64,000 nt of DNA from Epibacterium sp. (GCA_048263945.1 JBLXDQ010000004.1:229975-293974); one strand, 5' to 3'; counted from the first letter of the stretch, positions 15,595 to 27,838 are shown. Program-made: numbers and translations. Notes: a model not told the origin generated them from the sequence alone.

Positions 15595-16356
15595 TCACCA
15601 CGTCGCTCCCGGATAGGCGCGCTGCATCCATTGCATGGTGGTCAGCAGATGGCCGAGGTGCTCGGTGTGCATCTTGCCATTGCGACCGCCACCCCGGGCG
15701 CGGTTGGCCTCGGGCAGGGTCAGCGTCGCCTCGCCCAGCACGCGGGCGAGGGTGGCGTCAAACTCTGCCCGCAGGGAGGCCGGATCGGGGGCGATGCCGG
15801 CCTCGACCAGGGCGGCATCCACCGCGTCGCTCAGGAACATCTCGCCCACGTAGGGATAGAGGTAATCGAGCGCCGCCTGCATCCGGGCGTGGCTTTCCTC
15901 GGTGCCGTCGCCAAGGCCAATCACCGTCTCGGCGGAGCGGTCGAGGTGATAGGTCGCTTCCTTCACCGCCTTGGCGGCAATCGCGGCAACCCGCGTGTCG
16001 GAGGAGGCGGTCAGCGCCTTGAGTTGCAGCACATGCCAAGCGTCGAACAGGAATTGCCGCATCAGGGTCTGGCCAAAATCGCCATTCGGCATCTCGACCA
16101 GCAGCAGGTTGCGAAAGTCCCAGGCATCGCGCAGGAAGGCGAGGTCGTCGGCGGTTTTGCCCGCACCCTGCACCTCAGCCGCGAGGCCAAGCCACATCTG
16201 GGTCTGGCCGATCAGATCAAGCGCGGTATTGGCGAGGGCGATGTCCTCCTCCAGCACCGGCGCATGGCCGCACCATTCGCTGACGCGATGGCCGAGGATC
16301 AGTGTATTGTCCCCCATCCGAAGCAGGAATTCGTAAAAAGCAGCCTCCCGCGCCAT
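15595..16356 (-). CDS. paaC: Phenylacetyl-CoA epoxidase structural subunit PaaC
   Basis: GDNTLILGHRVSEWCGHAPVLEEDIALANTALDLIGQ, PNGDFGQT, KEATYH. Confidence 0.93.
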   Translation of the reverse strand: MAREAAFYEFLLRMGDNTLILGHRVSEWCGHAPVLEEDIALANTALDLIGQTQMWLGLAAEVQGAGKTADDLAFLRDAWDFRNLLLVEMPNGDFGQTLMRQFLFDAWHVLQLKALTASSDTRVAAIAAKAVKEATYHLDRSAETVIGLGDGTEESHARMQAALDYLYPYVGEMFLSDAVDAALVEAGIAPDPASLRAEFDATLARVLGEATLTLPEANRARGGGRNGKMHTEHLGHLLTTMQWMQRAYPGATW

Positions 16357-16640
16357 CACATCGCCCCCACGTCATCGGGGATGTCGTAGAAGGACGGGTG
16401 GCGGTAGACCTTGCTCTCCGACGGCTCATACATCGGCCCCTTGTCGGAGGGCGAGGAGGCGGTAATGGCCGCAGCCTCGACCACCCAGATTGACACGCCT
16501 TCGTTGCGGCGGGTGTAGACGTCGCGGGCGTTCTTGATCGCCATTTCCGCGTCCGGCGCATGCAGGCTGCCGACGTGACGGTGGCTGAGACCATGCTGGC
16601 CGCGGATGAAGATTTCCCAGAGGGGCCATTCGGTTTTCAT
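16356..16640 (-). CDS. paaB: Phenylacetyl-CoA epoxidase subunit PaaB
   Basis: Start MKTEWPLWEIF at 16640; HVGSLHAPDAEMAIKNARDVYTRRNEGVSIWVV. Confidence 0.93.
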   Translation of the reverse strand: MKTEWPLWEIFIRGQHGLSHRHVGSLHAPDAEMAIKNARDVYTRRNEGVSIWVVEAAAITASSPSDKGPMYEPSESKVYRHPSFYDIPDDVGAM

Positions 16641-16666
16641 ATGTGGTCCTTTCGGTGCTGGGGTCA

Positions 16667-16750
16667 TGCCCGGCCTTAGCCGGGCAGCGCCCGACCCTCC
16701 CCCACAGGGAGGGCGCTTCTCGCCCACCCTGAGTGTCGGGCGCCGGGGGC
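16667..16750. repeat. REP-like hairpin element inside the paa operon (paaA-paaB gap)
   Basis: GCCCGGC-CTTA-GCCGGGCAGCGCCCGAC ... GTCGGGCGC nested inverted repeats. Confidence 0.65.
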
Positions 16751-16778
16751 CGCCAGACGTGGTGTTTCCCTAATGCGG

Positions 16779-17771
16779 TTACTCTGCCGCCATCTTGCGG
16801 GCGCGTTTCTTCTCTGCATGGGCCATCAGCCCCTCGCGCACCCAGGCGCCGTCGTCCCAGGCCTTGTTGCGGGCGGCGAGGCGGTCGGTGTTGCAGGGTC
16901 CGTTGCCTTTGATCACCTCAAAGAACTCTTCCCAATCGGGTTCGGAGAAGTCGTAGCCGCCTTTCTCCTCGTTCCATTTGAGGTTCTCGTCCGGCACGCT
17001 AAGGCCGAGGAACTCCGCCTGCGGCACGGTCTGGTCGACGAATTTCTGGCGCAGCTCGTCATTGGTGTTCATCTTGATCTTCCACGCCATCGACTGCGCG
17101 GAATGCACCGAGTCCTTGTCCGAGGGGCCGAACATCATCAGCGCCGGATACCAGAAGCGATTGAGCGCATCCTGAGCCATCGCCTTTTGCTGGGCGTTGC
17201 CCTTGGCCATTTTCATCATGATGTCAAAGCCTTGGCGCTGGTGGAAACTCTCTTCCTTGCAGACGCGGATCATGGCGCGGGAGTAGGGGCCAAAGGAGGT
17301 GCGCTGCAGCGGCACCTGATTCATGATCGCCGCGCCATCGACCAGCCAGCCGACCGCGCCCATATCGGCCCAAGTGAGCGTCGGGTAGTTGAAGATGGAG
17401 GAATACTTCATCCGCCCGTCGAGCAGCATCTCGGTCATCTCGTCGCGGCTGACGCCCAGCGTCTCGGCCGCGCAATACAGGTAGAGCCCGTGGCCGGCCT
17501 CGTCCTGCACCTTGGCCAAAAGGATCGCCTTGCGCTCCAGCGTCGGCGCGCGGGTGATCCAATTGCCCTCGGGCAGCTGGCCGACGATCTCGGAATGGGC
17601 GTGCTGGCCGATCTGGCGGATCAGGGTCTTGCGATAGCCCTCGGGCATCCAGTCCTTGGGCTCGATCTTTTCGCCCGCGTCGATGCGGGCCTGAAAGGCG
17701 GCCTCCTCGGGGCTCATCTCCTCGCGGGATTTGACCCTGGTCCCGGTCGATTTGACCATCTGCGCGTACAT
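16779..17771 (-). CDS. paaA: Phenylacetyl-CoA epoxidase catalytic di-iron subunit PaaA
   Basis: Start MYAQMVK at 17771; [39 protein letters not shown]. Confidence 0.95.
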
Positions 17772-17862
17772 TGCTGGCTCCTCCGGTCTGGCGTGGCGCG
17801 CGTCCAAAACGCGGCCTGCGCCCTTGCAGTCTAGGCGCAGCAGCGATTCGGCTCAATCCAAA

Positions 17863-17900
17863 TGTAACACAAAAATTCACGTATGGAATATTGTGTAACG
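17863..17900. promoter_or_regulatory. AT-rich imperfect palindrome in the paaA/atuA divergent region (candidate operator)
   Basis: TGTAACACAA-aa-ATTC-acgtatg-GAAT-a-TTGTGTAACG; outer arms match at 8 of 10 positions as inverted repeats. Confidence 0.45.
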
Positions 17901-18092
17901 TATCGTGGCCATCCGGTCGCGCAACAAATGGTATCGCAAGCCCACCGTAAGAATAGGAAAATTGCGACGAATGCGAGACAGAACGAAAAAACTGCGGCAT
18001 GATGGAGGGGCTAGGGTCGGAGTCGCTGCTGACTGAGACCCCAGCCAACCAGGGTCACGAGCAAAGCAGAAAGGACCAACAGGCTGCCGAAC

Positions 18093-19901
18093 GTGAAAGA
18101 CGTCCTGCGTATAGGAGGTGCCTGCGGCTATTGGGGCGACGCGGCACAATCTACCCCGCAACTGCTTGCTGCGGGAGATGTGGACGTTCTGGTCTACAAC
18201 TACCTTGCCGAGATCACGATGGCGATTATGGCCCGGGCCAAGGCCCGCGATCCCAAGGCGGGATTTGCCAATGATTTCCTGACAGATGTCCTTGTTCCCA
18301 ATCTGCGCAAAATCGCCGACCAGCGGGTGAAGATCATCACCAATGCAGGGGGCGTCAATCCGCGTGCCTGTGCGGCGGCGGCAGAGGCCGCGATCGCGCG
18401 GGCCGGGCTGAAGCTGAAGGTGGCCGTGGTCACCGGGGACGATCTGATCCAGAAGGCGCCCGATATGGCCAAGGCCGCGCCCAAGGATATGGCCACCAAC
18501 GCGCCGTTCCCGCCTGCCGAACATATTGCCAGCATCAATGCCTATATCGGCGCCTTCCCGATTGCCGCAGCCTTGGACGAGGGGGCGGATATTGTCATCA
18601 CCGGACGCTGTGTCGACAGCGCGATGGCACTGGGCGCGGCGATCCACCGGTTCGCGTGGCAGGATACCGACGTCAAATGGCTGGCGGGAGGATCTCTTGC
18701 CGGGCATGTGCTGTCCTGCGGGGTGCAGGCGACGGGCGGCAATTTCACGGATTGGGAGGCGGTCGAGGGCGATCTGGACAGCCTCGGCTATCCGATTGCG
18801 GAAATCGCGGGGGACGGCAGCTTTGTGGTGACAAAGCCCGAAGGCACCAGCGGTCTGGTCAGCCGGGGCACCGTGGGCGAACAGATCCTGGCCGAGATTG
18901 CCAATCCGCAGGCCCATGTGTTGCCGGATGTGGTTTGTGACTTCAGCCAGGTCACTCTGGAAGAGGTCGGGGTGAACCGGGTGCGGGTGACGGGCGCTGT
19001 CGGCTCCGTGCCGCCGGATCACTACAAGACCGGGGTGGCGTGGATCGACGGGTTCCGCATCGGTCAGTATTTCTCCTTTTATGGCACCGATGCCGAACGC
19101 AAGGCCGAGCGCTTTGCCGATGCGGTGCTGACGAAATCCGAAGCTCAGCTTGAGGCGCGCAATATGCAGCCTTTCCGCGGCACCAACGTGGAAATCCTCG
19201 GGTCTGAGGCGCAGTTTGGCGTGTTGCGGGAAAGCGAAGCCGCCCGCGAGGTGGTAGCCAAGATTGCCGTGCGCCATCAGGAGGCGGCGGGCACGATGGT
19301 GTTCCTCAAGGTGGCCAATGGGCTGAGCTATGCGGCCCCGCCGGGGCTGAGTGGGTACGCCGCGCCGCGCCCGCAGCCCAGCCCGGTTCTGTCGGTGTTC
19401 ACCTGCCTGACGCCGAAGTCCGAGGTGCCGCTGACCCTGCGGATGGGGGCAGACGTCGAACGCAAGATGGTCGCCAAAAAGACCGCTCTGCCTGCCGAGG
19501 TCAAACCGCCCAAACCGCATGAGCCGCCCCGAGATCCGATGGCGCGCGGGCCGGTGGTCTCGGTCCCGCTGGTGCGGCTGGCGTTTGCGCGCAGTGGCGA
19601 CAAGGGCGATCTGGTCAATATCGGCGTGATGGCGCGGCGGCCGGAACAATTGCCGTGGATCTGGGCGGGTCTGAACGAGACCCATCTGGAGCGCGTCTTT
19701 GGCCACTTTATGGAACAGGGTGTGATCCGGCGCTATTTGCTGCCGGGCTTTCACGCGATGAATATTACGCTCTCGGGTGCGTTGAAGGGAGGCGGATCGG
19801 CCTCTCTGCGCAATGACCCGCAGGGCAAGGGGTTCGCGCAGCTTCTGCTTGCTGCGCCGATCATGGTGGATTGGTCTCTGCTGGGGAGTGGCGGCCAATG
19901 A
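18093..19901 (+). CDS. atuA: Acyclic terpene utilisation AtuA-family protein (DUF1446)
   Basis: RIGGACGYWGD, YLAEITM, NAGGVNP, ADIVITGRCVD, AGHVLSCG.QATGGNF, ARSGDKGD, DPQGKGFAQ. Confidence 0.88.
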   Translation: MKDVLRIGGACGYWGDAAQSTPQLLAAGDVDVLVYNYLAEITMAIMARAKARDPKAGFANDFLTDVLVPNLRKIADQRVKIITNAGGVNPRACAAAAEAAIARAGLKLKVAVVTGDDLIQKAPDMAKAAPKDMATNAPFPPAEHIASINAYIGAFPIAAALDEGADIVITGRCVDSAMALGAAIHRFAWQDTDVKWLAGGSLAGHVLSCGVQATGGNFTDWEAVEGDLDSLGYPIAEIAGDGSFVVTKPEGTSGLVSRGTVGEQILAEIANPQAHVLPDVVCDFSQVTLEEVGVNRVRVTGAVGSVPPDHYKTGVAWIDGFRIGQYFSFYGTDAERKAERFADAVLTKSEAQLEARNMQPFRGTNVEILGSEAQFGVLRESEAAREVVAKIAVRHQEAAGTMVFLKVANGLSYAAPPGLSGYAAPRPQPSPVLSVFTCLTPKSEVPLTLRMGADVERKMVAKKTALPAEVKPPKPHEPPRDPMARGPVVSVPLVRLAFARSGDKGDLVNIGVMARRPEQLPWIWAGLNETHLERVFGHFMEQGVIRRYLLPGFHAMNITLSGALKGGGSASLRNDPQGKGFAQLLLAAPIMVDWSLLGSGGQ

Positions 19902-19965
19902 GGGTAATGCAGCTGTTAACGGCAGCTCGGTGGGGGCCGAGACATCACTCTGAGAGGAGGCTGTT

Positions 19966-21582
19966 ATGAACGCCGTCTACAGCAGGATCACCCCCACCGA
20001 CACCGGCCTGTCGCAGAATAAGGCCGAAATGGAAGCGCTTATTGCCCGAATGAGACGGCTGGAAGCGCGGGCCACCGAGAAGAGCGAGGCCAAAAGACCG
20101 ATTTTTGAAAAACGCGGCCAGCTCTCACCCCGGGACAGGCTGGCCGCGCTTCTGGACCCGGGCCTGCCATTTCTCGAACTCTTCAACATGGCGTCGTATT
20201 TGGTCGATGACCCGGACCCGAAATCCTCGGTTCCTGGTGCCTCGATCATAGCGGGCATCGGCTTTGTCGCCGGTGTGCGGGTGATGGTCTATGTCGATGA
20301 CGCAGGGATCAATGCGGGCGCCATGACCGGTAAGTCGGTGGACAAGGCGCTGGGGGTTCTGGCGATTGCCGAACGCCAGCGGCTGCCCTTTATCCATCTG
20401 ATCGAGAGCGCCGGGGCGGATCTGACGCGCTATTCTGTCGAGCTTTGGGCGCAGGGGGGCGCGATGTTCGCGGGGCTGGCGCGCCTGTCGGCTGCGGGCA
20501 TTCCGGTGGTGTCGGTGTTGCATGGTCCGGCCACGGCGGGCGGGGCCTATCATCCGGGCCTGTCGGACTATGTGATCGGCGTGCGGCGCAAGGGGATGGC
20601 GATGCTGGCCGGGGCCGCATTGGTGCAGGCAGCGACGGGCGAGGAGGCCTCGGATGCGGCGCTGGGCAGTGTCGATATGCATGCGGCGGTCACCGGTCTG
20701 GTTGACTACGTCGCCGAGGATGATGCCGAAGCGTTGGAGGTTGCGCGGGGGGTCCTGAGGGATCTGGATTGGCCGCGCGCAACGCTGCCGCGCCGCGACT
20801 ACACCGCGCCCGCCTATCCGGCGGATGACATCCTGAACGTGGTCCCTGCCGACTATCGCTGCCCCTATGACATGGTCGAATTGGCGCTGCGTCTGGTGGA
20901 TGGCGGCAGCCTGCGAGCGTTCAAGCCGGAATATGGCGCCAGCACCCCCTGTTGGCAGGCGCGCCTCATGGGCCATGCCATCGGCCTTGTTGGCAGCAAC
21001 GGACCTGTGGACCCGGAGGGGGCGGCCAAGACGACGCATTTCCTGCAGCTGATGGAGCAAGCCGGAAATCCGGTGATCTTCCTCAGCAATACCACCGGCC
21101 ATATGGTCGGCACCGAGGCTGAGCGCGCCGGTATGATCAAGGCGGGCGCCAAGCTGATCCAAGTGGTGACCAACCTGCGGGTGCCGAAAATCGCGCTCTA
21201 TGTGGGGGCCAGTTTTGGCGCTGGAAATTACGGCATGTGCGGCTATGGGTTCGGCGCGGATTTCCTCTTTACCTGGCCCAACGCGCGCACCGGCGTGATG
21301 GGCGGCGGGCAGGCGGCCCTGACGCTGGAGCAGGTCGCGCGCCGTGTTGCCCGGCGCCGCGCCATGGAGGTGGACGAGGGCAAGCTGTCGTCCCAGCGAG
21401 AGCGGATCATCGACCATTTCGACGGCCAATCGGACGCGTTCTACACCTCTGGGCGGGCGCTCGACATGGGGATGATCGATCCGCGCGACAGCCGCCGGGT
21501 GATCGGGTTCTGCATCGATACCTGTCTTGAGGGGCGCGCCCGGACCCCAATTTGCAACAGTTTTGGAGTGGGTCGGACATGA
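19966..21582 (+). CDS. Acyl-CoA carboxylase carboxyltransferase (beta) subunit, AtuC/MCC-beta-like
   Basis: RGQLSPRDRL..LLD, ESAGADL, AGGAY, NTTGHMVG and GASFGAGNYGMCG motifs are intact. Confidence 0.9.
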   Translation: MNAVYSRITPTDTGLSQNKAEMEALIARMRRLEARATEKSEAKRPIFEKRGQLSPRDRLAALLDPGLPFLELFNMASYLVDDPDPKSSVPGASIIAGIGFVAGVRVMVYVDDAGINAGAMTGKSVDKALGVLAIAERQRLPFIHLIESAGADLTRYSVELWAQGGAMFAGLARLSAAGIPVVSVLHGPATAGGAYHPGLSDYVIGVRRKGMAMLAGAALVQAATGEEASDAALGSVDMHAAVTGLVDYVAEDDAEALEVARGVLRDLDWPRATLPRRDYTAPAYPADDILNVVPADYRCPYDMVELALRLVDGGSLRAFKPEYGASTPCWQARLMGHAIGLVGSNGPVDPEGAAKTTHFLQLMEQAGNPVIFLSNTTGHMVGTEAERAGMIKAGAKLIQVVTNLRVPKIALYVGASFGAGNYGMCGYGFGADFLFTWPNARTGVMGGGQAALTLEQVARRVARRRAMEVDEGKLSSQRERIIDHFDGQSDAFYTSGRALDMGMIDPRDSRRVIGFCIDTCLEGRARTPICNSFGVGRT

Positions 21583-23627
21583 CAGAAGTTCCAAAAACAC
21601 CAAGGCCGCCGAAAACCGGCCCCTTTACCCGCCTGCTGGTTGCGGATCGAGGGGCGGGGGCGATGCGGATCATCAAAAGCGCGCGGGCCATGGGGCTGAC
21701 CTGCGTGGCGGTCTACACCCGAGCCGATTTCGACAGCCCGCATGTGGCCTTTGCGGATGAGGCGATCTGCATCGGTGATGACAACTATCAGGCGGTCGAT
21801 CGGCTGGTGCAGGCGGCGCGCGACAGCGGCGCACAGGCGGTGCATCCCGGGACCGGCCCGCTGGCCGAGAGCGCAGCCTTTGCCAAGGCCTGCGCCAAGG
21901 CCAAGCTGATCTTTATCGGTGCCTCTGCCGAAACGCTGGCGCAGGTGGGCGACAAGGCGGTGACGCGGCGGGTGCTGACGGCGGCCAAAGTGAGCTGTCT
22001 GCCGGGCTATGACGGTGCGGATCAATCGCTTGAGACGCTCTCGCAAGAAGCGGAGCGGATCGGCTATCCGGTGATGATCAAGTCGGCCTGTGGCACGGAA
22101 GGGCGGGCAATGCGGCTGGTCGAGGGCGCCTATGCCCTTGAAATCGCGTTAAAAGACGCACAGGAAGCCGCCACCGCACAGGTCGGATCGAAAGAGGTGG
22201 TTTTGGAGGCGGCCCCGGATGAGCCCTGCCATATCGAGGTCGCCCTTTTGGCGGATGCGCAGGGCGGGTTGGTGCATCTGGGCGAGCGGGACTGTTCGAT
22301 CCAGCGCCGCAATCAAGCACTGATCGCCGAGGCCCCAGCGCCGGGCTTGAAGCCAAAACAGCGCGACAAGATCCTTGAGACCGCGCTCCTGGCCGCGCGC
22401 ACTGTCGGCTTTGTCGGGGTGGGCAGCGTCGAGTTTCTGCTGGATGGCGAGGGCAAGGCGCATGTGCTGGAGATCACCTCTGGCCTGCAATTTTCCGCCC
22501 GGGCGACCGAGGCGGTCTGCGGTCTTGATCTGGTACAAGAGCAATTGCGCATTGCGCAGGGCGATCCCTTAGGGCGGGAACAGGGGGACATCCGCTTTGA
22601 CGGCTTTGGCATCGCGGCGCGGCTTGCTGCGGAGGATGCGGGCGAAGCCTTTCAGCCGCAGGCCGGGCGTCTGGTCCTGTGGCAGGCAGGCGAGGGTGTT
22701 CAGGCGGAGGTTGGCGTGACCAGCGGACAGGCGATTTCGCCGCTCTATGATCCGGTTCTGGCGCTCTATGCGGCCCAAGGCCATTCGCGCGAGGCGGCGC
22801 GTTTGCGGCTGCGCTGGGCCATGCAGCAAACCTTGGTGCTGGGGCTTGCCACGACGCGGGATCTGCTGGTCGAGATCCTCAGCCATGAGGCCTTTAAGAC
22901 CGCGGCGCTCAATACCGGGTTCCTGCGCGAGCATTTCCCCCGCCCCAGTGCGGGACCGCTGACGACGGCAGAGATCGCGGTGGCGGCCGCGTTGTTCTAT
23001 TGGCGCGAGGCGGATGCTGCGGCGCTGAGCGTGCCGGAGGTGCCAGAAGAGCTGTTGAGTTGGTCGAACCAAGGTGTGCTGTTGCGTCGGATGCGCCTGC
23101 GGGCGACGCTTGGCGGGTTTGATCGGGCGATGGCGGGGCGCGATGGCGTTTTGACCGCCCGGCTGGAGGATCGCGGCGGGCAAGTGCGGGTCTTTATTGG
23201 CGAAATGCTGCATGTGGTGACCCGTAGCGCACAGGGTCAGGTGCTGTTGGACGGGGTGCCGCAAACGCTGCGGGCGCAGATGTTCGAGGGGGCGCAGTTG
23301 CATCTTGCGACAGAGACCCGCGTGCTGTCGCTGATGCTGGAGCCTGTTCGGCGCAACCTTCGGGCCACGCAGGCGCAGGGCGAAATCCTCGCGCCGCTGC
23401 ATGGTCGCCTCAAGGGGCTGCAACGCCGCGAGGGCGATCTGGTGCAGGAGGGCGACCTTTTGATGGTGATCGAGGCGATGAAAATCTCGCATCAGATCCG
23501 CGCGGCCACCACAGGCCGCATCGTGGCCTTGCCGGTGATTGCGGGTGATCAAGTCTCGCGCGGGGATCTTTTGGTGCGGATCGAGGCCACCGAAAGCGCG
23601 CTGGAGGTTACAGCCGAACCCGTGTGA
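21579..23627 (+). CDS. Biotin carboxylase-BT-BCCP (alpha) subunit, AtuF/MCC-alpha-like, with degenerate catalytic motifs
   Basis: Colinear with the BC fold (GDK, GYPVMIK, ERDCSIQRR, VEFL, RLAAED, YDP), but ANRGE reads ADRGA, GGGGRGM reads CGTEGRAM, RRHQK reads RRNQA and EMNTRIQVEH reads EITSGLQFSA. BCCP EAMK is retained at 23472-23483. ATGA-coupled to the beta subunit. Confidence 0.85.
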   Translation: MTEVPKTPRPPKTGPFTRLLVADRGAGAMRIIKSARAMGLTCVAVYTRADFDSPHVAFADEAICIGDDNYQAVDRLVQAARDSGAQAVHPGTGPLAESAAFAKACAKAKLIFIGASAETLAQVGDKAVTRRVLTAAKVSCLPGYDGADQSLETLSQEAERIGYPVMIKSACGTEGRAMRLVEGAYALEIALKDAQEAATAQVGSKEVVLEAAPDEPCHIEVALLADAQGGLVHLGERDCSIQRRNQALIAEAPAPGLKPKQRDKILETALLAARTVGFVGVGSVEFLLDGEGKAHVLEITSGLQFSARATEAVCGLDLVQEQLRIAQGDPLGREQGDIRFDGFGIAARLAAEDAGEAFQPQAGRLVLWQAGEGVQAEVGVTSGQAISPLYDPVLALYAAQGHSREAARLRLRWAMQQTLVLGLATTRDLLVEILSHEAFKTAALNTGFLREHFPRPSAGPLTTAEIAVAAALFYWREADAAALSVPEVPEELLSWSNQGVLLRRMRLRATLGGFDRAMAGRDGVLTARLEDRGGQVRVFIGEMLHVVTRSAQGQVLLDGVPQTLRAQMFEGAQLHLATETRVLSLMLEPVRRNLRATQAQGEILAPLHGRLKGLQRREGDLVQEGDLLMVIEAMKISHQIRAATTGRIVALPVIAGDQVSRGDLLVRIEATESALEVTAEPV

Positions 23628-23705
23628 CTGAGCAATCCGTCACGCCCGCCGTTGCCAAGTCCGCCATGGCTGCCGTAAGCAGAGAGGCGGAAACAGGAGG
23701 CGCTT

Positions 23706-24356
23706 ATGGCCGGGCAGACAGACACGCTGATCGCGGCGATCCTTGAGGATATCGACGCAGGTCGCCTTGCGCCGGGGCAAGAGATTGACGAGACCGCGCT
23801 GGCCGCGCGTCATGGTGTCTCGCGCACGCCGATCCGCGAGGCCTATATCCAGCTTGAAGCCTCCGGTCTGATCCGCCGCCTGCCAAGGAAAGGCGCGGTG
23901 CTATTCAAGCCGAGCCTTGAGGAATTCCTCGCCATCCAAGAGGTCCACGCCCGGCTTGAGGGGCAGGCGGCCGGCCTTGCCGCCCGGCGCATCTCGCCCG
24001 AGTTGCGCGCGCGGCTCGAGGCGGCGGTCCTCGCCTGCGAGGCCCATGCGGCAGAGCAGGGCGACGGCGACCCGGATGGCTATTACCAAAAGAACCTTCG
24101 CTTTCACGAGGCGGTGGCCTTGGGGGCCGGCAATCCGGTGCTTTTGGAGATGATCAAGACCAATGCGCGCAAGCTGATGGCCTATTACCGCGCCCGCTAC
24201 CGCTATCCCGGCGCCATTGCGCAATCGGCGCTGGAGCATCGGGCGATTGCTGACCTGATCCTGACCCATGACCGCGACGGCGCCGAGGCCACGATGGAGG
24301 CGCATGTGCTGTTTGATCAGGTCACGGTGATGGACCTCTTGGCGGCGCTGGGTTAG
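23706..24356 (+). CDS. GntR-family regulator (FCD domain)
   Basis: GRLAPGQEIDETALAARHGVSRTPIREA wHTH; FHEAVALGAGNPVL and EHRAIADLI FCD motifs. Confidence 0.9.
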   Translation: MAGQTDTLIAAILEDIDAGRLAPGQEIDETALAARHGVSRTPIREAYIQLEASGLIRRLPRKGAVLFKPSLEEFLAIQEVHARLEGQAAGLAARRISPELRARLEAAVLACEAHAAEQGDGDPDGYYQKNLRFHEAVALGAGNPVLLEMIKTNARKLMAYYRARYRYPGAIAQSALEHRAIADLILTHDRDGAEATMEAHVLFDQVTVMDLLAALG

Positions 24357-25054
24357 CGGGCTTCAAAAAACCGCGCGATGGCCTCAGCCAAGGCGGGCTG
24401 GTCGGCGGGCTCCTCTAGGGTTGCGATGGCGCGGGCGTAGACCTCTGGCCCCAGCTCGGCGCGCATCTCCTCGGTCAGGGCACAGATGAAGGCGTGGGTC
24501 ATCTCCGGGTGGTGCTGGGTGGTGGCGATATGGTCGCCAAGGGTGAAGCCGGTGTTGACCTCCGCCCGTGTCATCAGGGGCAGGGCGCCTGCGGGCAGGT
24601 CGCGCACATATTCCACATGGGAGCCGTAGATCGAGACCACATCCGGCAGGTCACGCGCCCAATCCGGGCGGGCGAGAAGGTGATTCTCGGTCCGGCCATG
24701 CACCCAACCGCCGGGCAGGTTATCGACGCTCCCGCCCAAGGCCAGCGCAATCGCCTGATGGCCGAAACAACAGCCAAACAGCGGCAGTTTCCGCGCGTGC
24801 ATCTGGCGTATCAGCTCCAAAAGCTGCACCACCCAAGCCGCGCCAGAGCGGGTGGAGGCCGGGCTGCCGGTGATCATCACCCCATCGTAAGCACTTATAT
24901 CCAGAGGGAATTCGCCATCCTTCACCGCATAGACCGTGGTGCGCCAATCGGGGCGCGCCATCTGCAACAGGGCGGTGAATTTTTCGCCATCCTTGGGATG
25001 CGCCTCAGCAAAGGCGCTCTCGTCGGTATTGGTCATCAAAATGGCGATGTGCAT
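24353..25054 (-). CDS. Class I glutamine amidotransferase-like protein (candidate gamma-glutamyl-amide hydrolase)
   Basis: ITGSP oxyanion strand, GCCFGHQ nucleophile elbow, TQHHPE His-Glu; start MHIAIL at 25054. Confidence 0.85.
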   Translation of the reverse strand: MHIAILMTNTDESAFAEAHPKDGEKFTALLQMARPDWRTTVYAVKDGEFPLDISAYDGVMITGSPASTRSGAAWVVQLLELIRQMHARKLPLFGCCFGHQAIALALGGSVDNLPGGWVHGRTENHLLARPDWARDLPDVVSIYGSHVEYVRDLPAGALPLMTRAEVNTGFTLGDHIATTQHHPEMTHAFICALTEEMRAELGPEVYARAIATLEEPADQPALAEAIARFFEAR

Positions 25055-25090
25055 ATTTAGGCTTTCCATAAACATAAATCAGGTGCTTAA

Positions 25091-25100
25091 TAGTATACAT
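25091..25100. promoter_or_regulatory. Candidate GntR/FadR-type operator in the GATase/P450 divergent promoter
   Basis: TAGTATACAT (palindromic GTATAC core) in a 73 bp AT-rich gap. Confidence 0.35.
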
Positions 25101-25127
25101 GTGAAGCAGTTCAAAGGAAGCCCCGCG

Positions 25128-26387
25128 ATGACGATCTGGACCCCGAGTGACGATGGTTTTGCGGATCTGTCGAGCCACGACACCTTTGCCAAGGGCGCGC
25201 CGCATAACACCTTTGCCCGGCTGCGCCGCGAGGACCCGCTGCATTGGACCGAATATGCGGATGGGCAGAATTTCTGGTCGGTGACCCGCTACGAGGACAT
25301 CACCCAGATGAACAAGAACACTGAGGTGTTTTCCTCCGCGCGCGGCATTCGGATGGAGGATCAAACCTACGAGGAATACCTCGCGCGGCGCACCTTTCAG
25401 GAGACCGATCCGCCGGAGCATTCCCAAGTGCGGATGAAGCTGCTGAAGGCGTTTTCCAAGACCACAATGGCACAATATGAGGCGGACATCCGCACGCTCT
25501 GCGCCGAGATTTTGGACGCAGCACTGGCCAAGGGAACCTTTGATGCGACCAAAGAGATCGCCCGGCAATTGCCGATGCGGATGCTCGGTCGTGTGGTGGG
25601 CTTGCCCGATGCGGACCTGCCGTGGCTGGTGGAAAAGGGCGATGCGCTGATCGCCAATACGGACCCGGATTTCACCTCCCATGTGCTCGACAAGATGAAC
25701 ACGGACGAGTTCCGCATGATGCCCTTCAACTCGCCCGCCGGGGCGGAATTATACATCTATGCCAAGGAGTTGATGGAGGCGAAGGCGCGGGCGGGCGATA
25801 CTTCGGGCGTGCTCAACCTGATACTCGAGCCTGCCAAGGATGGCTCCACCATCACCGAAACCGAGTTCCGCAATTTCTTCTGCCTTCTGGTGGCCGCGGG
25901 CAATGACACCACGCGCTATTCCATCGCGGCGGGGCTACAAGCCCTGTGTCATCAGCCGGAACTGTTGGCGCAGATGCAGGCGGGCGGCGCGGTCTGGGAG
26001 ACGGCGGCGGATGAGATCATCCGCTGGGCAACGCCCGCGCTCTATTTCCGCCGCACCGCGACGCGCGATGTGGAGATGCACGGCAAGACGATCCGCGAAG
26101 GCGATAAGGTGCTCTATTGGTTCATCTCCGCCAACCGCGACGAGAGCTATTTTGACGACCCCTTCCGGGTGAACCTGATGCGCAGTCCCAACCGGCATCT
26201 GTCCTTTGGCCAGTTTGGCCCGCATGTCTGTCTGGGCATGTGGCTGGCGCGGCTGGAGGTGACGGTGCTGTTTCAGGAGCTTGCCAAGCGGATCAAGTCG
26301 ATCTCGCCGGCGGGCGAGCAGAAATTCCTGCGCTCGAACTTCGTCGGCGGCATCAAGGAATTGCCCGTGCGTATCGAGGCCGCTTAG
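25128..26387 (+). CDS. Cytochrome P450
   Basis: Start MTIWTPSDD at 25128; I-helix LLVAAGNDTT, EIIRW (ExxR) and heme motif HLSFGQFGPHVCLG. Confidence 0.95.
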   Translation: MTIWTPSDDGFADLSSHDTFAKGAPHNTFARLRREDPLHWTEYADGQNFWSVTRYEDITQMNKNTEVFSSARGIRMEDQTYEEYLARRTFQETDPPEHSQVRMKLLKAFSKTTMAQYEADIRTLCAEILDAALAKGTFDATKEIARQLPMRMLGRVVGLPDADLPWLVEKGDALIANTDPDFTSHVLDKMNTDEFRMMPFNSPAGAELYIYAKELMEAKARAGDTSGVLNLILEPAKDGSTITETEFRNFFCLLVAAGNDTTRYSIAAGLQALCHQPELLAQMQAGGAVWETAADEIIRWATPALYFRRTATRDVEMHGKTIREGDKVLYWFISANRDESYFDDPFRVNLMRSPNRHLSFGQFGPHVCLGMWLARLEVTVLFQELAKRIKSISPAGEQKFLRSNFVGGIKELPVRIEAA

Positions 26388-26417
26388 GCTGGGTTTGAAC
26401 GGATGAAGACTGGGACT

Positions 26418-26465
26418 CCCGGGCAATTGCCCGGGCAGCGCCCACCCTAGGCTCGGGCGCTGCCC
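26418..26465. repeat. REP-like hairpin element (same head as the paa intergenic copies)
   Basis: CCCGGGCAATTGCCCGGGCAGCGCCC...GGGCGCTGCCC. Confidence 0.6.
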
Positions 26466-26548
26466 TCTCCGAGGTGACGCGCCACAGATGATTAAGGCCA
26501 GCCGCACGGCAAAGATGCGCGCGGCCTCCAACAGGAAAGGAAGACCCG

Positions 26549-27838
26549 ATGAAGCCCCGCCTGCGCGCGCTGTTCTGCGATCATCTCAGCATTCTGCGGG
26601 GGAAATACCTGCCGCATTCCAAGATCGGCGATGGCGATACGCGCTTTTGCCGCTCGGTCTTTGGCACCCATTACGACCGCGATCTGTTGGACGCGCCGGG
26701 GTCCATGGTGAAACAGGGCCTGCCGGATATGGAGCTGCGCTGGCTCGGTGACGAGATCCGCGACAGCTGGCATGCTTCGACCAAGATCGTGCTTGGCGAT
26801 CTCTATGACGATGCGGGCGAGCCTTTGTCCCTGTGTCCGCGCGGCGCCCTGAAGCGCGCGGTGGCGGCCTGGCAGGCCAAGGGGCTGACGCCCAAGGTCG
26901 GGATCGAGCTGGAAGCCTATGCGCTGCAACCGGATGAATACGGGCGGCTGGTGCCCTATGACGCGCCGGGCGGAGTGGTCTATGGCACCGGCCCTTTTGC
27001 TGATCCTTTGCGGTTCAACGACCGGATCTGGGCGATGGCGGATGAGATGGGTTTCTCCCTCGATATGATCACCGCCGAGTTTGACACGCCTCAGTTTGAA
27101 TACACGCTGACCTTTGACGACGCGGTGAAGGCGGTGGACGATATCGTGCTGTTCCGCTTGATGGCGCGGGAGATCGCGCTGGAATATGGCATCGTGCTGA
27201 CCTTTATGCCGAAACCCGTGGCAGGGGGCGGTGGCTCGGGGATGCATGTGAACATGTCCTTCACGGATGAGGCCGGGGGCAATGCGCTCTCCTCTGGGCC
27301 GCGCGGCGGGCCGGAACATATGAACGATCTGGTGCGGGGCTGTCTCGCGGGATTTCTGCATCACCACAAGGGCTTGGCCGGTCTGATCGCGCCGACCGCC
27401 AATAGCTATATGCGGCTGCAACCGGGGAGCCTCTCGGGCTTTTGGCAGAACTGGGGCGGCGATCATCGCAATGTCACCACGCGGATCAGCTCGGAAGGCG
27501 GTGCCAAGGCGCGGCTGGAGCATCGGATGGCGGATGCGTCATCAAACCCCTATACCACCGTGGCGGCTCTGTTGCAGGCAGCGCGGCTCGGGATGGAGCA
27601 GGGCTATGCCTTGCCGCCGATGGAGACCGGCGACGGGTTTGACCGCACGGATACCCGCGAGAGCACCGCGATGACCTTGAAGGGCGCGATTGCTGATCTG
27701 GAAAAGGATACCGCTCTGGCGGAGGCGGTGGGGCGCGAGCTGGTCGCCAACCATGTGTTTATGAAACAGAAAGAGGTCCGCAAGACCCGCGATCTGGAAG
27801 GCGATGCCTTGCGGGATTTCTACGTGCATTTCGTCTGA
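26549..27838 (+). CDS. Glutamine synthetase-like protein (gamma-glutamyl-amine ligase, PuuA/IpuC-like class)
   Basis: GIELEAY, AEF..PQFE, PKP...GSGMH, NSYMRL, WGGDHR and RLEHR.AD..SNPY; 429 aa with a reduced N-domain, unlike housekeeping GlnA. Confidence 0.85.
   Translation: MKPRLRALFCDHLSILRGKYLPHSKIGDGDTRFCRSVFGTHYDRDLLDAPGSMVKQGLPDMELRWLGDEIRDSWHASTKIVLGDLYDDAGEPLSLCPRGALKRAVAAWQAKGLTPKVGIELEAYALQPDEYGRLVPYDAPGGVVYGTGPFADPLRFNDRIWAMADEMGFSLDMITAEFDTPQFEYTLTFDDAVKAVDDIVLFRLMAREIALEYGIVLTFMPKPVAGGGGSGMHVNMSFTDEAGGNALSSGPRGGPEHMNDLVRGCLAGFLHHHKGLAGLIAPTANSYMRLQPGSLSGFWQNWGGDHRNVTTRISSEGGAKARLEHRMADASSNPYTTVAALLQAARLGMEQGYALPPMETGDGFDRTDTRESTAMTLKGAIADLEKDTALAEAVGRELVANHVFMKQKEVRKTRDLEGDALRDFYVHFV

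Follow-up and report, generated by a model that had tools for sequence, protein, structure and literature searches.

The 64,000-nucleotide stretch of Epibacterium sp. DNA analysed here (the window; GCA_048263945.1, JBLXDQ010000004.1:229975-293974) is part of the 4.67-Mb genome, 99.55% complete, of a marine roseobacter, and carries at 18093-23627 three genes that, on sequence grounds, form an AtuA/AtuC/AtuF set. An AtuA homologue is followed by the carboxyltransferase (CT) beta subunit and the alpha subunit of a carboxylase of the geranyl-CoA carboxylase (GCC) type, and the biotin carboxylase (BC) domain of the alpha subunit has lost catalytic residues. The best explanation of the whole, to which we give a probability of about 0.6, is that the trio represents the roseobacter AtuA-AtuC-AtuF core of the acyclic-terpene pathway for removal of beta-methyl branches, in which the BC is dead and the alpha subunit has nevertheless been kept. 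The genes of the trio and the relevant parts of the alpha subunit are as follows.

18093..19901, plus strand: AtuA, 602 amino acids; PF07287 (433 bits) and PF23544
19966..21582, plus strand: CT beta subunit, AtuC/geranyl-CoA carboxylase type; PF01039, catalytic motifs intact
21579..23627, plus strand: AtuF-like alpha subunit with BC, BT and BCCP (biotin carboxyl carrier protein) domains, 682 amino acids; BC, ATP-grasp and biotinyl domains of Pfam all matched
21624..22961, plus strand: BC (ATP-grasp) domain, catalytic residues lost, as read from alignment to solved BC chains
23472..23483, plus strand: biotinylation motif E-A-M-K (residues 641-644; K644 in the numbering of the open reading frame)

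The open reading frame (ORF) of the alpha subunit opens at a TTG at 21552, from which its residues are numbered here. The real start is the ATG at 21579, which overlaps the CT stop codon as ATGA and suggests translational coupling; a protein of the same species (P0001), 98% identical to the window alpha, begins with MTEV at the equivalent of this ATG. The protein has the BC-BT-BCCP domain order and the biotinyl-lysine motif. Outside the clade to which it belongs, the proteins that it matches best carry the annotation geranyl-CoA carboxylase alpha (∼40% identity), and it is 38% identical to the genome's own 3-methylcrotonyl-CoA carboxylase (MCC) alpha.

The BC residues were read from an alignment with solved MCC and BC chains, four orthologues, two BCs of the atu/liu type, and the MCC alpha and AccC of the same genome. 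Residue numbers of the E. coli enzyme follow the established numbering of BC. Across the domain, ANRGEIA is replaced by ADRGAGA and HPGYGFLSEN by HPGTGPLAES. The glycine loop that forms the lid, GGGGRG, reads CGTEGR (C180-R185). RRHQK is changed to RRNQA, so that E. coli H236 and K238 correspond to N254 and A256, and EMNTRLQVEH is changed to EITSGLQFSA, in which N290, R292 and E296 correspond to T309, G311 and S315. K116, K159, E276, E288 and R338 (E. coli numbering) are kept. These replacements in catalytic motifs bear out the suspicion of the initial annotation that the domain is a pseudo-BC, and they support the prediction that the window alpha is unable to carry out ATP-dependent carboxylation. 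A search of the literature on dead BC domains found nothing.

The loss is shared by close relatives. Within a clade of 56–98% identity, the window alpha, P0001, P0002 and P0003 are BC-dead with an intact BCCP motif, whereas G001/P0004 and P0005 have a fully canonical BC. None of the four BC-dead sequences has lost EAMK, after which Ile (in the window) or Leu takes the place of the usual Met. The same residue losses are found in the window and in Arenibacterium sp. LLYu02 (G010), which like Tritonibacter horizontis is a named close relative, and in a wider motif comparison of 16 aligned homologues the distant ones are canonical throughout. As far as these sequences go, the dead BC is confined to one lineage, comprising the source species, Arenibacterium sp. 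LLYu02 and one more metagenomic relative. A single ancestral inactivation is indicated, because the two BC-dead subgroups have many derived states in common. The allele of T. horizontis (L016, 8251-11918) has canonical BC motifs; there EAMKM has become HGVSG, with loss of the biotinyl lysine, and the CT motifs are degraded as well (AGGAY to AAEAC). This allele reads as a second, independent disabling of the same carboxylase.

The trio differs from its surroundings in age. Between the window and Arenibacterium sp. LLYu02, the flanking genes (paaA, GntR, GATase and a glutamine synthetase (GS)-like gene; 15595-17807 and 23706-27838) are 94–98% identical in protein and 95% in DNA, against 87% and 84% for AtuA and 84% at both levels for the CT. 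The alpha genes share 69% of their DNA over 1996 bases, with equal length and no stop codon, and the encoded BC and BT-BCCP portions are 60% and 68% identical without a single gap in 446 and 212 residues, respectively. The same island pattern appears against G001, in which the trio is 79, 84 and 60% identical to that of the window and GntR 94%. Synonymous divergence is ∼0.17 in the flanks and ∼0.6 in AtuA and CT, and the ratio of nonsynonymous to synonymous divergence (dN/dS), window against Arenibacterium, is ∼0.10 for AtuA, 0.14 for CT and 0.2–0.4 for alpha, all of these values being rough hand estimates from the identity figures. Because synonymous divergence in the trio so exceeds that of the flanks, 18093-23627 seems to be an island of divergence whose alleles long predate the genome around them, a pattern indicative of allele replacement by recombination.

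These comparisons bear on whether the alpha subunit is still of use. It may be argued that loss of the carboxylase is under way in a clade that can do without the pathway, the BC having been hit first, so that alpha (and perhaps beta) is an undisrupted pseudogene and only AtuA functions. Six close alleles do show three catalytic states (canonical, BC-dead and BCCP/CT-dead), alpha is the fastest evolving of the three genes, and the module is patchily distributed: a search of 19 other congeneric genomes found an alpha orthologue in 3, and one of 150 other genera of the same family found AtuA in 19. Phaeobacter sp. HF9A even has an AtuA on its own. Set against this are the 31% of bases that separate the two BC-dead allele groups with length and frame preserved, which is very unlikely for neutral DNA; the CT, still 84% identical in protein with its motifs intact at a synonymous divergence of ∼0.6 (by hand estimate); and EAMK in 4/4 BC-dead sequences. 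We regard this explanation as doubtful. A purely neutral alpha had also been considered, since a flank synonymous divergence of ∼0.17 would make 60% protein identity look neutral, but the trio's own value of ∼0.6 rules against it, and the combination of older alleles and relaxed purifying selection replaces that reading. Decay of the whole module was likewise rejected as the principal explanation, the alpha reading frame being intact and CT and AtuA constrained. The preferred interpretation is that alpha is a selected pseudoenzyme, apparently relaxed mainly in its BC domain, next to an AtuA and a CT that appear fully constrained. Selection on alpha is argued from the fact that a neutral 2-kb gene at such divergence would gather many indels or stops, and none is seen.

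In Phaeobacter sp. HF9A (L025), the solitary AtuA lies between an aminotransferase and a methyltransferase gene, and CT, BC, paa, GntR and P450 genes are all absent there. AtuA can thus persist without the carboxylase in this strain.

The CT subunit is of the geranyl-CoA type. Its best solved match is the geranyl-CoA carboxylase beta subunit 5ikl (516 bits), against 380 bits for MCC beta. In the alignment it is without the three-residue insertion of the MCC type and places a Gly opposite Gly162 of GCC; the corresponding selectivity position is Phe191 in MCC (PMC4673880). The protein is 84% identical to the CT of both Arenibacterium sp. LLYu02 and G001. It also matches 1pix and 3gf3, the alpha subunit of glutaconyl-CoA decarboxylase.

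The AtuA of the window, the only one in the genome, is 45% identical over its full length to AtuA of Pseudomonas gingeri. An AlphaFold (AF2) model built from 64 diverse homologues reached a pLDDT of 94.5. Its residues 1–453 match chain A of 9evf (Foldseek E 1.4e-20; VIA Z 30.9, root-mean-square deviation 3.7 Å over 424 residues), and its C-terminal ferredoxin-like domain (about residues 488–593) matches the 105-residue chain B of the same entry with a TM score of 0.69. 9evf is a complex of citramalate lyase with ADP and pyruvate, in which chain A was given the name 'AtuA family protein / citramalate lyase subunit A (cmlA)' by the depositors. A search with the single AtuA sequence against solved structures returned noise only, and 9erq/9evf were reached just by the fold search and by a search with an AtuA-family profile, the latter with an E value of 8.8e-11. 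As modelled, AtuA is a fused homologue of CmlA (residues 1–453) and CmlB (about 488–593), a match that backs the initial guess of a C–C lyase.

Among the AtuA homologues, three cluster representatives (P0274, P0284 and P0310) are fusions of AtuA to an enoyl-CoA hydratase. Citramalate and 3-hydroxy-3-alkylglutaryl-CoA both contain a HOOC-CH2-C(OH)(R)- unit. Because of the fold match to CmlAB, the hydratase fusions and this common unit, AtuA is probably an acetate-releasing lyase that would act on 3-hydroxy-3-alkylglutaryl-CoA after the hydratase step, that is, the classical acetate-lyase of 3-hydroxy-3-isohexenylglutaryl-CoA (HIHG-CoA). The literature on DUF1446 gave no functional account of the family, only that its gene adjoins that of methylaspartate ammonia-lyase. 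Another homologue, P0260, is 1144 amino acids long, and its C-terminal half of about 540 residues has no Pfam match.

The remainder of the genome offers several possible partners. It carries four other, live BC paralogues (MCC alpha, propionyl-CoA carboxylase (PCC) alpha, AccC and pyruvate carboxylase) and, on contig C1, a complete liu cluster encoding isovaleryl-CoA dehydrogenase, an AMP-dependent ligase, MCC beta, MCC alpha, 3-hydroxy-3-methylglutaryl-CoA (HMG-CoA) lyase and a hydratase. Searched against the whole genome, Pseudomonas AtuD and AtuE find their best matches in this cluster, namely in the isovaleryl-CoA dehydrogenase (34%) and the hydratase (42%), and it is plausible that the latter supplies the hydration step. 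No dedicated AtuD or AtuE was found genome-wide; AtuB, AtuG and AtuH are not adjacent to the trio, and for these three the rest of the genome was not searched. The initial annotation had held that the rest of the Atu pathway is missing; this stands in so far as the AtuD and AtuE searches return only liu enzymes, and falls short in that the liu cluster can supply a hydratase.

From these data a mechanism can be proposed. In its normal form, the GCC-type enzyme would carboxylate a branched enoyl-CoA at the 3-methyl group that blocks it; water would be added by a hydratase, most likely the LiuC-type one of the separate liu cluster; and AtuA would release free acetate to leave a 3-oxoacyl-CoA for beta-oxidation. 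The ATP and bicarbonate site of alpha would have been lost once, in the common ancestor of the source species and its closest allele group. Alpha would since have been retained as an intact, selected frame with its biotinyl-lysine motif, serving as scaffold and biotin carrier only and unable to charge its own biotin. In the version that we prefer, the CT half-reaction on BCCP-biotin would still be in use, and its carboxybiotin would come in trans from AccC or MCC alpha.

Supply in trans is ranked slightly above an ATP-independent carboxyl transfer or decarboxylation, which comes a close second, because no Na+-pump subunit was found and decarboxylation makes little catabolic sense before the lyase. 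A Na+-pumping decarboxylase was rejected, as the genome has no match to the pump beta subunit (OAD_beta, PF03977). A soluble biotin enzyme is another matter: alpha would be a true pseudoenzyme, and AtuA, CT, dead BC and BCCP would together make a new soluble, ATP-independent decarboxylase of the 3-alkylglutaconyl-CoA type, or a transcarboxylase, coupled to an AtuA lyase that acts on branched dicarboxylic CoA esters. The old live and dead alleles would then persist as functional alternatives to each other within near-identical flanks. The decarboxylase or transcarboxylase is in essence the idea of the initial annotation, and the carboxyl removal from a branched dicarboxylic acyl-CoA proposed there is one candidate reaction among several. 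Such an enzyme would fit the retention of the CT and the biotinyl-lysine motif with loss of only the ATP and bicarbonate residues, the apparently strong purifying selection on AtuA and CT, and the membership of glutaconyl-CoA decarboxylase alpha in the CT family. It is made unlikely by the lack not only of PF03977 in the genome but of any other carboxybiotin decarboxylase or second carboxyltransferase in the neighbourhood. Moreover, decarboxylation of an alkylglutaconyl-CoA would restore the beta-methyl block, which is catabolically senseless upstream of the lyase, and transcarboxylation would need a single CT site that accepts one CoA ester as donor and another as acceptor. The idea of alternative functional alleles built on this enzyme is one that we hold to be improbable to the same extent.

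Several observations count against a carboxylase core with a retained alpha as well. We know of no precedent for a holoenzyme whose BCCP is charged in trans. The lyase step of P. aeruginosa has reportedly been credited to LiuE, so that the lyase role of AtuA is inferred. The hand estimates of dN/dS are rough. Alpha, its BT-BCCP part included, evolves faster relative to AtuA in the BC-dead alleles: BT-BCCP and AtuA are 68% and 87% identical between the window and Arenibacterium sp. LLYu02, compared with 70% and 77% in the canonical pair G001 and L026, whose BC domains are 77% identical. The carrier role could therefore be weakening too. Lastly, the carboxylase looks dispensable in the clade, as T. 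horizontis has lost the biotinyl lysine and CT motifs and Phaeobacter sp. HF9A has AtuA by itself. Because of the lysine loss in the former and the lone gene in the latter, two further options are kept alive, namely that the complex no longer works as a carboxylase and alpha and beta are retained for some other reason, and that the module is decaying slowly.

The genes around the trio are arranged as had been described in the initial annotation. ORFs and Pfam/NCBIfam domain matches give the head-to-tail order atuA, CT, BC-BT-BCCP alpha and GntR/FCD on the plus strand, with paaA divergent; the genes beside the trio include none for an acyl-CoA dehydrogenase, an enoyl-CoA hydratase, an acyl-CoA ligase or an alcohol dehydrogenase. 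The paaABCDE block lies upstream, and GATase, P450 and GS-like genes lie downstream.

16779..17807, minus strand: paaA, subunit A of 1,2-phenylacetyl-CoA epoxidase (TIGR02156, 522 bits), the divergent neighbour in the conserved paaABCDE block
17845..17900: intergenic boxes between paaA and atuA, GATTCGGCTCAA (17845-17856), AAATGTAACAC (17860-17870) and TTGTGTAACG (17891-17900)
23706..24356, plus strand: GntR/FCD regulator; PF00392 and PF07729

The minimal trio beside paa is the usual roseobacter arrangement, mostly with a canonical BC. The paa genes are divergent from AtuA-CT-BC also in the congeners G010, G001 and G017, on one metagenomic contig and in Leisingera, and the BC of such a trio is canonical in Leisingera and two close relatives. 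Fuller clusters with enoyl-CoA hydratase and acyl-CoA dehydrogenases, and without paa, occur in Pseudomonas and in a more distant alphaproteobacterium (G040). As the trio without atuB, D, E, G and H is the roseobacter norm, the absence of these genes alone is no sign of a new reaction. The earlier proposal that the unit does something other than canonical geranyl-CoA carboxylation thus loses its argument from minimality and keeps the one from the lost residues for ATP-dependent carboxylation in alpha.

The proximity to paa raises the question of whether the trio belongs to phenylacetate catabolism, or to the paa-derived tropone chemistry of roseobacters, instead of catabolism of the isoprenoid type. 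The synteny with paaABCDE extends across genera. The spacing between paaA and atuA is 285 nt, and within it the three boxes are invariant in an alignment of six loci from several genera, Leisingera included; they are a candidate operator/promoter region common to the divergent paa and atuA promoters. A promoter and terminator scan of 17500-25200 gave output no better than that from shuffled sequence. Against an assignment to paa, gamma-carboxylation is not needed at any paa step, and the trios of Pseudomonas and G040 sit in full atu-like clusters without paa. The history of the trio also differs from that of the paa flank, with DNA identities to Arenibacterium of 84% and 69% vs 95% (the PaaA proteins being 97% identical). 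We consider a role in phenylacetate or tropone metabolism very improbable. Between paaB and paaA, at about 16660-16745, lies a dispersed repeat of ∼85 nt, of which Arenibacterium sp. LLYu02 has at least nine further copies with 78–90% identity; it may be an element similar to a repetitive extragenic palindrome (REP) or a miniature inverted-repeat transposable element (MITE).

The GntR gene, counted as part of the module in the initial annotation, is probably better placed outside it. It adjoins the trio in the source genome (G000), G010, G001, G017 and L026; in Leisingera, two unrelated genes, for an acetyltransferase and a sulfatase, come between it and BC, and it still lies beside GATase-P450-GS. 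The window protein is 97% identical to that of Arenibacterium sp. LLYu02 and 94% to that of G001, values similar to the flanks and unlike the trio. Because of this linkage and this flank-like divergence, GntR probably serves the downstream GATase-P450-GS-like cluster, and a role as regulator of the trio was judged unlikely. Leisingera, G010, G001, G017 and the metagenome contig all have GntR together with the GATase gene (minus strand), the P450 gene and the GS-like ligase gene of this cluster, which spans 24353-27838 and more; it resembles a gamma-glutamylation/P450 amine pathway with GntR as its regulator.

Two aspects of the trio extend beyond this genome. AtuA has for two decades been unassigned yet essential in terpene and branched-chain catabolism, and the Cml fold together with the hydratase fusions gives it a reaction that can be assayed. 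The alpha subunit with its dead BC is a natural experiment, a biotin carboxylase holoenzyme without its ATP half, for which matched live (G001) and dead (source strain and Arenibacterium sp. LLYu02) alleles exist in nearly identical surroundings. An active complex would mean either that a holoenzyme carrier is charged in trans or that a new soluble biotin decarboxylase exists; an inactive one would be an unusually long-lived intact pseudoenzyme.

Compared with known systems, the trio is closest to atuABCDEFGH of Pseudomonas, which includes enzymes of the acyl-CoA dehydrogenase, enoyl-CoA hydratase, acyl-CoA synthetase and alcohol dehydrogenase types. Homologues of AtuA (45%), AtuC (516 bits vs 5ikl) and AtuF (∼40%) lie in the same order and one direction, and the CT has the GCC-type pocket of the Pseudomonas AtuC/AtuF carboxylase. 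Unlike in Pseudomonas, no AtuB, D, E, G, H or TetR-type AtuR is adjacent, the AtuF homologue is BC-dead, and the trio sits between paa genes and the gamma-glutamyl/P450 cluster. MCC of the Liu pathway has the alpha6beta6-type architecture in common with it, and a live copy lies on contig C1 of the source genome; the window CT is closer to GCC, however, and the window alpha, with its 38% identity to that MCC alpha, is degenerate.

CmlAB of Raoultella planticola (9erq/9evf, from the Berg laboratory) has its Pfam family and fold in common with AtuA, CmlB being equivalent to the C-terminal domain, and its chemistry, the release of free acetate from a 3-hydroxy-3-alkyl acid, is analogous. The two differ in that sequence identity is 16%, AtuA is a single fused chain, and Cml acts on the free acid where AtuA presumably acts on the CoA ester.

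The glutaconyl-CoA, methylmalonyl-CoA and oxaloacetate decarboxylases likewise pair a subunit of the CT family with a biotin carrier and carry out no ATP-dependent carboxylation, but they lack a BC domain altogether and need a Na+-pumping membrane beta subunit, which was not found in the source genome. The BADC proteins of plants, which are BCCP-like without the biotinyl lysine and modulate acetyl-CoA carboxylase, are a precedent for dead parts of biotin enzymes under selection. The T. horizontis allele without the lysine is similar to them; BADCs are stand-alone and carrier-like, whereas the window alpha combines a dead ATP-grasp with a kept carrier motif. The trio is thus a variant of the known atu system, to which the AtuA-Cml link and the matched live and dead alleles lend added interest.

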